Sequence record: MT611523.1
Strand: one strand, 5' to 3'
DNA: 64,000 bases
From: Escherichia phage DK-13
The notes under the pieces are model-generated. The model searched no databases. It worked only from the letters and a program-made list of their open reading frames with translations, and had not been told where the DNA came from. Below are positions 11,350 to 13,719 of the stretch, piece by piece. How positions within the stretch are numbered: position 1 is the stretch's first letter; the number at the start of each line of letters is the position of its first letter. A program made the translations under genes and the position numbers.

Positions 11350-11357
11350 TATTTATA
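11350..11357 (-). promoter_or_regulatory. T4-type late promoter TATAAATA
   Basis: exact TATAAATA on minus strand upstream of ORF 11166-11333. Confidence 0.45.
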
Positions 11358-11544
11358 CAACGAAGATAGCTTTATCACCATTTGCATCAGTCACTTCATA
11401 AGTGTCTTCATGATACAATGGAATAATCCAGGTAACACCATCATCAGCGATAACATGGATTGCTTCTTGGTCTTGCGACACGATTTCATATTCTTCAAAA
11501 ATCTGGAAGACGGAAATCTTAGAGCCCGTACACATTGCACTCAT
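11353..11544 (-). CDS. hypothetical protein (63 aa)
   Basis: co-oriented acidic ORF. Confidence 0.3.
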   Translation of the reverse strand: MSAMCTGSKISVFQIFEEYEIVSQDQEAIHVIADDGVTWIIPLYHEDTYEVTDANGDKAIFVV

Positions 11545-11740
11545 ATTGTTCCCTTCTTTTAATCAGTTGGCGATGTGCCTTTTTAAGTTTACGAATCTGA
11601 CGTTTAGTCGGTCGAGCAACGTAAGCTTGAGTAGTTACTCGTCCAAAAACTCCATACTTGGGAGACGGAGTATCAATAAAGACTTCCCATTGACAAGAGT
11701 AACTATATATTGCTTTAGAGAATTGGGTCAAAACAAACAT
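11519..11740 (-). CDS. small basic protein, PTKRQIR paralogue 1 (73 aa)
   Basis: W..hI ... Y.ARPTKRQIRKLKK motif shared with ORFs 12887-13126 and 35730-35915. Confidence 0.45.
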   Translation of the reverse strand: MFVLTQFSKAIYSYSCQWEVFIDTPSPKYGVFGRVTTQAYVARPTKRQIRKLKKAHRQLIKRREQYECNVYGL

Positions 11741-11741
11741 A

Positions 11742-12095
11742 TTAACCTCGCTTCATGAAGGCATTAAAAATCTGGTCGTCAACAGACTGTTCTTGAGCTT
11801 TGACCCAAGCTCCTTCCAGAATGTCATTCGCTTCAGTAGATATCATGACCCCAATTTCAGGGTTTCCTGTTATCCATGCTGCACAATCGCGCACATTCTT
11901 TTTATCAAATGGGTAGCCGCGAGTATCTTCATAAGGTCCATTCATTACCATAAATGAGCGAGCCTTTATGATAACATCATCTTTAACGATAATATAACCA
12001 ATCGCCTGATTAAACCGAGGCTCACGGAATTCATAATGAGCATTACCGTCATTATTGCTCGCTAGTTCAAAATTCAGAAAATTATAATAACTCAT
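11742..12095 (-). CDS. hypothetical protein (117 aa)
   Basis: C-terminus VDDQIFNAFMKRG encoded by the 37-nt direct repeat shared with the next gene. Confidence 0.45.
   Translation of the reverse strand: MSYYNFLNFELASNNDGNAHYEFREPRFNQAIGYIIVKDDVIIKARSFMVMNGPYEDTRGYPFDKKNVRDCAAWITGNPEIGVMISTEANDILEGAWVKAQEQSVDDQIFNAFMKRG
11747..11783. repeat. 37-nt direct repeat, copy 1 (CTCGCTTCATGAAGGCATTAAAAATCTGGTCGTCAAC)
   Basis: identical to 12102-12138; encodes the last ~12 codons of both adjacent genes. Confidence 0.8.
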
Positions 12096-12096
12096 A

Positions 12097-12534
12097 CTAA
12101 TCTCGCTTCATGAAGGCATTAAAAATCTGGTCGTCAACTGAATATACAGGGGTTTCCAGAATTTTCAAAAGACTGTTTTTGATGTACTTACCCGGGATAC
12201 CCATATTAACAATACTGTCATTCAATTCATTGTCAGGGTTGATGTCTTTAAATTCAAACCCGTCAAACTCAACCTTGTCAGGAATACCATCAGCGAAAAA
12301 ATAAACCAATTGGTGCATTGTATTGCACGAAAATAATTTGGACTTGACCGCAATAAGTTCTTTCCAATGGTTTAATTCTTTGTTAAGAAGCTTATGAGCA
12401 AACGTAATTCTATCATCACTATCAACAAGAAAATAACCCAGGTATTGAATGTCGTCGCTCCAAAACACCCGGTATGCCTGTGCATTTGGATTTTTACAGC
12501 GAAGTTTTTTGATAACTAAATTTCTGTTAATCAT
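12097..12534 (-). CDS. hypothetical protein (about 145 aa)
   Basis: internal Met start chosen to avoid overlap with upstream ORF; C-terminus SVDDQIFNAFMKRD from repeat copy 2. Confidence 0.4.
   Translation of the reverse strand: MINRNLVIKKLRCKNPNAQAYRVFWSDDIQYLGYFLVDSDDRITFAHKLLNKELNHWKELIAVKSKLFSCNTMHQLVYFFADGIPDKVEFDGFEFKDINPDNELNDSIVNMGIPGKYIKNSLLKILETPVYSVDDQIFNAFMKRD
12102..12138. repeat. 37-nt direct repeat, copy 2
   Basis: identical to 11747-11783. Confidence 0.8.
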
Positions 12535-12535
12535 T

Positions 12536-12829
12536 TTATTCACCTGTAACCCATTGAACAATTTTGCTATTGTCAAATGAAGCATCGCAATACAGAACAT
12601 AGTTATACTGCATAACGTCACCAGAAGTCAATTTGTCAGATACTTCTTTAACCATATCAGGGCGGTCACGTTTAGTTATGTTCATAATATCAGCATAAAT
12701 CTGATGTTCAACATCAGTCTGGTCGGCAGTCATAGACCACTCACAAAGGTCTTTATCAAGTCCAGCAGTAACTGGAGCTGTACCACATGATGCTACGGTA
12801 AGAATTGCCGCGATTAATAACTTTTTCAT
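12536..12829 (-). CDS. secreted lipoprotein/periplasmic protein (97 aa), possibly Spackle-like
   Basis: signal peptide with lipobox-like VASC; T4 sp position between 61 and 41; own class-A promoter. Confidence 0.45.
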   Translation of the reverse strand: MKKLLIAAILTVASCGTAPVTAGLDKDLCEWSMTADQTDVEHQIYADIMNITKRDRPDMVKEVSDKLTSGDVMQYNYVLYCDASFDNSKIVQWVTGE

Positions 12830-12857
12830 TTCAATCTCCTCAGTAGTTGATAGGGAT

Positions 12858-12886
12858 AATATACAGCATTATCCCTTTGTTGTACA
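12858..12886 (-). promoter_or_regulatory. sigma70-type early promoter with class-A leader
   Basis: -35 TGTACA (12881-12886), 17-nt spacer, -10 TATATT; leader CCCTATCAACTACTGAGGAG. Confidence 0.5.
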
Positions 12887-13126
12887 CTATTTTAATGCAT
12901 CTTCCAGATAAATTTTGCGGAATTTGCGTTTTGTCTGACGAATCTGACGCTTGGTAGGTTTCACAGGAAATTCGAAGAACTCTACGTATTCTTGTTCATA
13001 ATCATTGTGGCCGACTGAAAGAACTAGTTCCCAGCTGCTTACGGTGCGTTGGATAAACATATTATGCTTACCAAAAGATTTATTCCAAAAAGAACTAGGG
13101 GTAGGTTTCATTAATGCGATATTCAT
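12887..13126 (-). CDS. small basic protein, PTKRQIR paralogue 2 (79 aa)
   Basis: VKPTKRQIRQTKRKFRK C-terminal motif. Confidence 0.45.
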   Translation of the reverse strand: MNIALMKPTPSSFWNKSFGKHNMFIQRTVSSWELVLSVGHNDYEQEYVEFFEFPVKPTKRQIRQTKRKFRKIYLEDALK

Positions 13127-13330
13127 TTAAATTTCCTCAATGCGGGCATCATATTCAAAAACTTTATTGTCATTAACAAAGGCTTTAACCAGCGCATTAT
13201 TCACTTCTGCATACTGCACTGTAACCCATTCAATCATATTTTTGTCACTAACATCCAGCGCGGTTTCTTTGGTAAACATATTACCGTTTTCAAACCAACC
13301 AATAAATACTACGTTCTCTAATTTATACAT
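13127..13330 (-). CDS. hypothetical protein (67 aa)
   Basis: co-oriented ORF. Confidence 0.4.
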   Translation of the reverse strand: MYKLENVVFIGWFENGNMFTKETALDVSDKNMIEWVTVQYAEVNNALVKAFVNDNKVFEYDARIEEI

Positions 13331-13648: not shown

Positions 13649-13674
13649 TTTATTCTCCAGTAGTTGATAGGGTC

Positions 13675-13703
13675 ATTATAACATAAGAAAAAGGGGCTGT
13701 AAG
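13675..13703 (-). promoter_or_regulatory. early promoter with class-A leader
   Basis: -10 TATAAT at 13675-13680; -35 lies inside the terminator hairpin; leader GACCCTATCAACTACTGGAG. Confidence 0.4.
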
Positions 13704-13708
13704 CCCCT
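13686..13708 (-). terminator. rho-independent terminator downstream of gene 41
   Basis: AGGGGCT-GTA-AGCCCCT hairpin followed by T-run on minus strand. Confidence 0.55.
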
Positions 13709-13719
13709 TTTAAAATATT

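Follow-up and report, generated by a model that had tools for sequence, protein, structure and literature searches.

AdfA is among the few characterised phage inhibitors of toxin-antitoxin defence and, to our knowledge, has been described as a protein without relatives. It is the gp61.2 product of phage T4 (anti-DarT factor A) and corresponds to the Pfam family PF23813 (LeRoux et al., 2022, as cited in PMC11825919 and PMC9391042). AdfA binds and neutralises DarT1 in a His164-dependent manner, and whether His or Arg occupies position 164 is decisive (PMC11825919). In T4, adfA (61.2, directed against DarT) belongs to an "anti-TA island" that also contains dmd (against RnlA) and tifA (61.4, against ToxN) (PMC9391042). 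Segmental amplification of dmd-tifA and compensating deletions occur in T4 via short direct repeats or microhomologies, and homologies as short as 6-10 bp are used for recombination in this region (PMC9391042). Work published on T4-type phages also describes the PeSLs, intergenic elements composed of a sigma-70-like promoter and a terminator hairpin, which mediate gene shuffling (PMC2839356, PMC4122927).

We analysed a stretch of 64,000 nt from Escherichia phage DK-13 (MT611523.1), hereafter called the window. It belongs to a T4-like coliphage of the genus Gaprivervirus, and the locus described here is about 97% identical to those of vB_EcoM_VR20 and RZ. On the minus strand, the gene order is 41 (helicase), a 105-aa gene, dmd, a 79-aa DUF7279 gene (gp61.4/TifA-like), sp, a 145-aa gene, a 117-aa gene, a 73-aa DUF7279 gene, a 63-aa gene, 61.1 and gene 61 (primase) (Table 1). 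The set formed by dmd, both DUF7279 genes, sp and the 145-aa and 117-aa genes is the counterpart of the T4 anti-TA island. Like AdfA in Tevenvirinae, the 145-aa and 117-aa genes are located between sp and 61.1/61.

The sequence CTCGCTTCATGAAGGCATTAAAAATCTGGTCGTCAAC was found exactly twice in the window, as two identical 37-nt copies, and no further copy with up to 3 mismatches was detected there, 0 being expected by chance (100 shuffles). When extended, the repeat reaches 49 nt, 46 of which are identical. One copy ends the 145-aa gene (translated from the ATG at 12534), whose product terminates in ...YSVDDQIFNAFMKRD, and the other ends the 117-aa gene, whose product terminates in ...QSVDDQIFNAFMKRG; the encoded peptide reads S[VI]DDQIFNAFM[KN][RK][GD]. 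The sequence-only reading of this DNA had reported a 37-nt direct repeat that gives two adjacent genes the same C-terminus, each copy preceding the start of the next gene. Both observations hold: 13 residues are shared, and a single base separates the stop codon in each copy from the next ATG, which opens the 117-aa gene after the 145-aa gene and the 73-aa gene after the 117-aa gene. An assembly artefact, which that reading had named as the finding that would undo it, is excluded as the source of the repeat, the same two-copy arrangement being present in many independent genomes. It recurs in 16 other fetched loci, drawn from phage genomes and from metagenome and IMG/VR contigs, with VR20 represented by two copies; RZ, UPEC01, SP18, VR7 and the TH series are also among them. 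The repeat is not peculiar to the genome of the window.

Table 1. Positions in the window of the tail copies, the surrounding genes and other elements of the locus.
Feature	Position	Strand	Remarks
145-aa gene (B145, phrog_8539)	12097-12534	minus	Slot just downstream of sp, the adfA position in T4
117-aa gene (C117, phrog_4122)	11742-12095	minus	Cassette, present or absent among related phages
Tail copy 1	12093-12141	minus	Last 13 codons of the 145-aa gene (SVDDQIFNAFMKRD)
Tail copy 1, exact 37-nt repeat	12102-12138
Tail copy 1, stop TAG	12097-12099	minus
Tail copy 1, 1-nt spacer	12096	minus
Tail copy 1, ATG of 117-aa gene	12093-12095	minus
Tail copy 2	11738-11786	minus	Last 13 codons of the 117-aa gene (SVDDQIFNAFMKRG)
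Tail copy 2, exact 37-nt repeat	11747-11783
Tail copy 2, GAGG	11746-11749	minus
Tail copy 2, stop TAA	11742-11744	minus
Tail copy 2, 1-nt spacer	11741	minus
Tail copy 2, ATG of 73-aa gene	11738-11740	minus
Near-invariant C-terminus of B145	12097-12195	minus	KYIKNSLLKILETPVYS plus tail
73-aa DUF7279 gene (gp61.4/TifA-like)	11519-11740	minus	Start codon and ribosome-binding site inside tail copy 2
63-aa ORF	11353-11544	minus	Shares 26 nt with the 3' end of the 73-aa gene
sp (spackle)	12536-12829	minus	Conserved left anchor of the variable locus
79-aa DUF7279 gene (gp61.4/TifA-like)	12887-13126	minus	Second DUF7279 gene; replacement hot spot
dmd	13127-13330	minus
22-nt repeat of the DUF7279 genes	11591-11612 / 12938-12959		86% identity; encodes PTKRQIR
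23-nt intergenic direct repeat	12841-12863 / 13658-13680		87% identity; upstream of sp and of the 105-aa gene
Hairpin at the 23-nt repeat	12852-12876
Promoter-like site in the 145-aa gene	12141-12168	minus	TTGAAA, 16 nt, TATATT; 10/12 matches
Stem-loop/promoter composite	13675-13711	minus	10-bp stem-loop (AAAAGGGGCTTACAGCCCCTTTT); CTTACA, 17 nt, TG-TATAAT

Several further elements of the locus were recorded. The two DUF7279 genes are paralogs and share a 22-nt repeat; the island therefore has not one but two duplicated gene pairs of anti-toxin type. The region of the 79-aa gene is 95-99.6% identical to TH40, TH22 and MN01, whereas compared to VR20, RZ, UPEC01, SP18 and others it falls to about 42% identity with indels, between flanks of more than 90%. 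MN01-type phages lack the 73-aa gene and carry the 63-aa gene directly after the tail. The 23-nt intergenic direct repeat overlaps promoter-like -10 regions. Between gene 41 and the 105-aa gene, a stem-loop overlaps a promoter-like site, a composite that would combine a terminator with an early promoter and resembles a PeSL. Directly upstream of tail copy 1, the 145-aa gene contains another promoter-like site.

The tail DNA of about 49 nt occurs at 757 places in 560 phage records, and about 200 genomes carry two copies. In T4 it is located at the 61.2/61.1 junction, with 86% identity to the 49-nt segment. The C-terminal motif S[IV]DDQIFNAFM[NK][RK][GD] is present in both window proteins and in all the AdfA sequences that we retrieved. 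According to the Pfam search, residues 102-117 of the 117-aa protein match only the last 16 positions (196-211) of the AdfA profile PF23813, with 21.4 bits for a gathering score of 27 bits and no full-length match, and the 145-aa protein gave no match to this profile at E <= 0.1. The tail is the ancient, family-wide C-terminus of T4 gp61.2/AdfA.

At the sp-61.1 locus, the tail is carried by three sequence families, namely AdfA (208-223 aa), B145 (phrog_8539) and C117 (phrog_4122), the last two including the 145-aa and 117-aa proteins of the window. Using tail-trimmed queries, the B145 body was found in 85 phage records from Dhakavirus and Gaprivervirus and the C117 body in 332, including T2 and the RB-series phages. 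An exhaustive profile search among 1.84 billion cluster representatives revealed no families beyond these three. Word-indexed protein searches with the window proteins returned close relatives only, with no cross-family matches. A degenerate tail pattern matched 16 stretches in IMG/VR and 12 in metagenome contigs, all T4-like, and gave 0 matches in bacterial and archaeal genomes. One protein 91% identical to the 117-aa protein (P0038) is assigned at NCBI to a metagenome-assembled genome of Limosilactobacillus reuteri; a mis-binned contig from a coliphage is the most likely source.

The tail-bearing genes are found in at least six arrangements after sp. AdfA is followed by 61.1 in T4, by C117 and 61.1 in wV7, and by the 63-aa gene in contigs encoding a 216-aa form of AdfA. 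C117 directly precedes 61.1 in T2-like phages. B145 is followed by the 73-aa gene in Dhakavirus and VR26, by C117 and the 73-aa gene in the window, and by C117 and the 63-aa gene in MN01. The gene after the tail can thus be one other than the 73-aa DUF7279 gene found there in the window. Across all these arrangements the junction between the tail and the next gene is constant (...AAx xGA GGT/GAT, stop, one base, ATG).

The sequence-only reading had proposed comparing copy number and flanking breakpoints in related phages. In this comparison, the tail-bearing genes of related phages number one or two and occur in various combinations, and the C117 gene is present or absent exactly between the tail copies (MX01 and VR26 compared to the window). 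In the Dhakavirus UGJNEcP3, a Gaprivervirus-type C117 cassette is joined to Dhaka-type flanks. As far as the equivalent of window position 11757, which falls within tail 2, the 61.1, 63-aa and 73-aa genes are Dhaka-type. The C117 body shares 94% identity with its counterpart in the Gaprivervirus TH40, and Dhaka-type sequence resumes at ~12169-12192, just past tail 1. The C117 tail itself is chimeric: its 5' part resembles Gaprivervirus and its 3' end Dhaka-type sequence (TTT ATG AAT CGA GGT TGA). On the tail-1 side the crossover maps to an interval of ~70-90 nt, which comprises tail 1 and the adjoining conserved upstream sequence. The C117 cassette has thus been inserted with one junction inside tail 2 and the other within this interval. 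The tails have served as crossover sites, as documented in this one chimera and as deduced elsewhere from presence and absence. A breakpoint at tail 1 of VR7 was also considered and rejected, the drop in identity from ~94% to ~78% being located ~50 nt upstream, at ~12190.

Taken as a whole, we consider it probable that the repeat is the coding DNA of a conserved AdfA-superfamily tail carried by tandem genes, and that it also offers homology for crossovers. Two tandem genes of a small gp61.2/AdfA superfamily would share this C-terminal tail within the dmd-tifA-sp-adfA island, between 41 and 61. Purifying selection holds the tail peptide invariant while the bodies diverge, and the final two codons, together with the stop, a single base and the ATG, serve as the start region for the following gene. 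As seen in UGJNEcP3 and as implied by the pattern of presence and absence, the maintained near-identity of the tail DNA across the members of the family means that two copies in a genome, or one in each of two co-infecting phages, provide 37-49 nt of homology for the insertion, deletion and exchange of cassettes. The tail is predicted to form a short amphipathic helix, capped by acidic residues (DD), hydrophobic along one face (I, F, F, M) and basic at its end (K/N, R). We infer from this prediction that it may dock to a common partner and thereby link inhibitor bodies of different specialisation to it. In the published adfA deletion of T4 (residues 65-196), exactly the tail codons remain.

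The nearest described mechanism to such an exchange is PeSL-mediated shuffling. In both cases, short conserved repeats flank accessory genes in a hyperplastic T4-like region and offer homologous crossovers for insertion, deletion or replacement; the repeat copies bound indels and replacements between related phages (the 117-aa gene in MX01 and VR26 compared to the window, and UGJNEcP3). However, PeSLs are intergenic, whereas the repeat of the window is coding and is conserved via its peptide, and both copies of the tail lack the PeSL hallmarks, namely the early sigma-70-like promoter and the stem-loop terminator. The microhomology recombination of T4 takes place in the same genome region and likewise leads to the gain or loss of anti-defence genes between short direct repeats. 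Its 6-10 bp are fortuitous, whereas the homology of the tail extends over 37-49 nt, is selected and recurs across genera.

A more far-reaching proposal, which we put forward tentatively and regard as rather unlikely, is that the tail combines two roles, as a portable docking peptide that tethers rapidly diversifying anti-toxin or anti-defence bodies (those of AdfA, B145 and C117) to one partner, and as a DNA linker which, through its enforced conservation, allows these bodies to be shuffled between T4-like phages. If this proposal is true, the common partner would be, for example, DarT-type toxins or a replisome component, and the tail would be the protein-coding counterpart of the PeSL cassettes.

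The sequence-only reading had attributed the repeat to a modular exchange or to recent gene conversion. Exchange is borne out by the UGJNEcP3 junctions and by the several gene combinations, while recent conversion is not demonstrated. Conversion or unequal exchange between the two tails would have produced the 37/37 identity and would make the repeat young at the DNA level. In its favour, the exact 37-nt repeat shows 0 differences between copies in the window, VR20, RZ and UPEC01, and the 45-nt core up to the stop codon shows 3 differences in these four compared to 4-10 in other Gaprivervirus genomes. Copy 1 of the window also contains CAG and TTC codons typical of copy 2. Moreover, the C117 tail differs from that of its neighbour in the same genus at 2.9 and 2.0 positions per 36 nt, compared to 6.3 from the orthologous C117 tail of the other genus, but codon usage, with A/T-ending codons in Tequatrovirus and G/C-ending ones in Gaprivervirus, confounds this genus pattern. 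In a permutation test run on distinct haplotype pairs, the tails within a genome were no more alike than those between genomes of the same genus (p = 0.71 for Gaprivervirus and 0.67 for Tequatrovirus), and genome-specific concerted evolution is unsupported by this test. The genomes with identical copies are not independent events because they are close relatives, only ~5-6 sites are free to vary, and the copy-1 haplotype of the window stands beside a different copy-2 haplotype in TH22 and UGJNEcP3. Although recent gene conversion in the lineage of the window is possible, we regard it as an unlikely origin of the repeat. The identity of the copies in this lineage would rather reflect the few free synonymous sites and a shared codon usage, possibly with occasional conversion.

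The earlier reading had also stated that the rest of the two proteins differ. This is correct for BLASTP, in which the alignment between the 145-aa and 117-aa proteins is limited to the 13 C-terminal residues, but for the bodies remote paralogy, with a single fold, is probable. The AlphaFold models obtained for the two proteins, of medium confidence (pLDDT 61 and 75; the tail helix is of low confidence), show the same order of elements: four strands, helix, strand, helix and tail helix. The four beta-strands are at almost the same positions in the two models, and the 145-aa model has a short extra strand. In a Foldseek search of predicted viral structures, the best match of each protein outside its own family was the other family (E = 4e-5 and 1.2e-3, with the identical tail included), followed by a 212-aa protein, presumably AdfA-like, at E = 1.5e-3. 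Using hhalign on tail-trimmed profiles from shallow alignments (Neff < 2.2), we obtained weak collinear matches (E = 0.002-0.03, probabilities 2-18%). B145 matched the C-terminal half of AdfA at E = 0.005 over 75 columns, and C117 matched the same half at E = 0.0023. All tail-trimmed matches are centred on a [YH]xF...GxxxVxDxxI motif, and once the tail is removed the three families still show the collinear motifs [YH]xF, GxxxVxDxxI and F..N. With the tail included, T4 AdfA residues 111-208 matched positions 23-118, nearly the full length, of the C117 PHROG (phrog_4122) at E = 1.8e-6. These models and profiles suggest that the bodies of AdfA, B145 and C117 are probably remote paralogs sharing one alpha/beta domain of ~100 aa. 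The N-terminal half of AdfA matched its C-terminal half at E = 0.0013, and AdfA may carry an extra N-terminal copy of the shared domain.

That the 145-aa and 117-aa genes are instead unrelated, each having gained the tail separately through the shuffling of a small C-terminal module, appears very unlikely. Such a scenario would agree with the BLASTP result, with the distribution of the three families in separate PHROGs, with the scores of the window proteins below the Pfam AdfA threshold and with the frequent mosaic breakpoints in the locus. It would also agree with P0036, a divergent relative of the 145-aa protein, in which ~31 near-identical C-terminal residues are attached to a body only 35% identical; the last ~31-33 residues of B145 are near-invariant even in this protein. 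Opposed to this are the common order of predicted secondary structure, the reciprocal structural best matches outside the own families, and the collinear motifs that persist without the tail.

The two window proteins compare with AdfA as follows. They share its slot after sp and before 61.1/61, its 13 C-terminal residues, the stop-N-ATG junction and the setting in an anti-toxin island, and they probably share the fold of its C-terminal domain. They differ from it by their size, 145 and 117 aa compared to 208-223 aa, and by the absence of the N-terminal half of AdfA. Apart from the tail, neither reaches the Pfam threshold. Neutralisation of DarT1 is a property of AdfA, and no counterpart of its residue 164 is established in the window proteins.

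We then consider whether the peptide or the DNA is under selection, the sequence-only reading having suggested selection on the DNA itself because each copy precedes a gene start. A comparison of 27 distinct tails taken from 45 loci gave 0 non-synonymous changes in the core DDQIFNAFM, while synonymous variation affects 7 of its 8 degenerate codons (GAC/GAT twice, CAA/CAG, ATT/ATA, AAT/AAC, GCT/GCC/GCA and TTT/TTC). This lack of amino-acid change combined with synonymous variation argues for selection on the peptide and not on the DNA. In the three-family alignment, 8 of the 11 invariant columns are within the tail. The tail peptide is under strong purifying selection, while the bodies have lost almost all recognisable similarity. 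At the last two positions the residues change (R/K and G/D/S), but their codons stay purine-rich (GAGG, AAGG, GAGA) at 6-7 nt before the next ATG, so the end of the tail doubles as the ribosome-binding site of the next gene. The last ~12 nt (last two codons, stop, 1 nt and ATG) are the ribosome-binding and start region of whichever gene follows, and it is for this part, with its Shine-Dalgarno GAGG, that the suggestion of selection on the DNA stands; the rest is synonymously free. RNA structure in the tail was rejected, six tail regions folding no more stably than shuffled sequences (z-scores -1.4 to +1.9), and neither copy contains a sigma-70-like promoter or a terminator.

That the 37 nt are conserved as a nucleic-acid element (for translation initiation or coupling, RNA structure, a promoter or a recombination site), the peptide being incidental, is the least probable reading and extremely unlikely: the constant purine-rich ending before the stop, one base and ATG, kept whatever gene follows and despite the changes in the last two residues, would fit it, as would the over-representation of GAGGTTAATATG-like strings in the window (4 compared to 0.33 expected), but upstream of the two final codons the third positions are free to vary whereas the amino acids stay constant, TTGAC is missing from the Tequatrovirus version, and the folding and promoter results above are against it.

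The reading that we favour, a conserved AdfA-superfamily tail on tandem genes, is broader than what the earlier reading proposed, yet it is fairly ordinary, as it describes tandem paralogs with a conserved terminal motif. Its interest is moderate and lies in tying two uncharacterised families to a known anti-defence protein, and in a coding repeat that acts as a shuffling linker. Because they share the invariant C-terminal helix of AdfA and probably its fold, B145 (85 genomes) and C117 (332 genomes) are direct candidates for new anti-defence factors, with the tail as the obvious putative element for partner binding. The locus is also a concrete natural example of a selected coding sequence that is at the same time the homology for cassette exchange in a phage counter-defence island.
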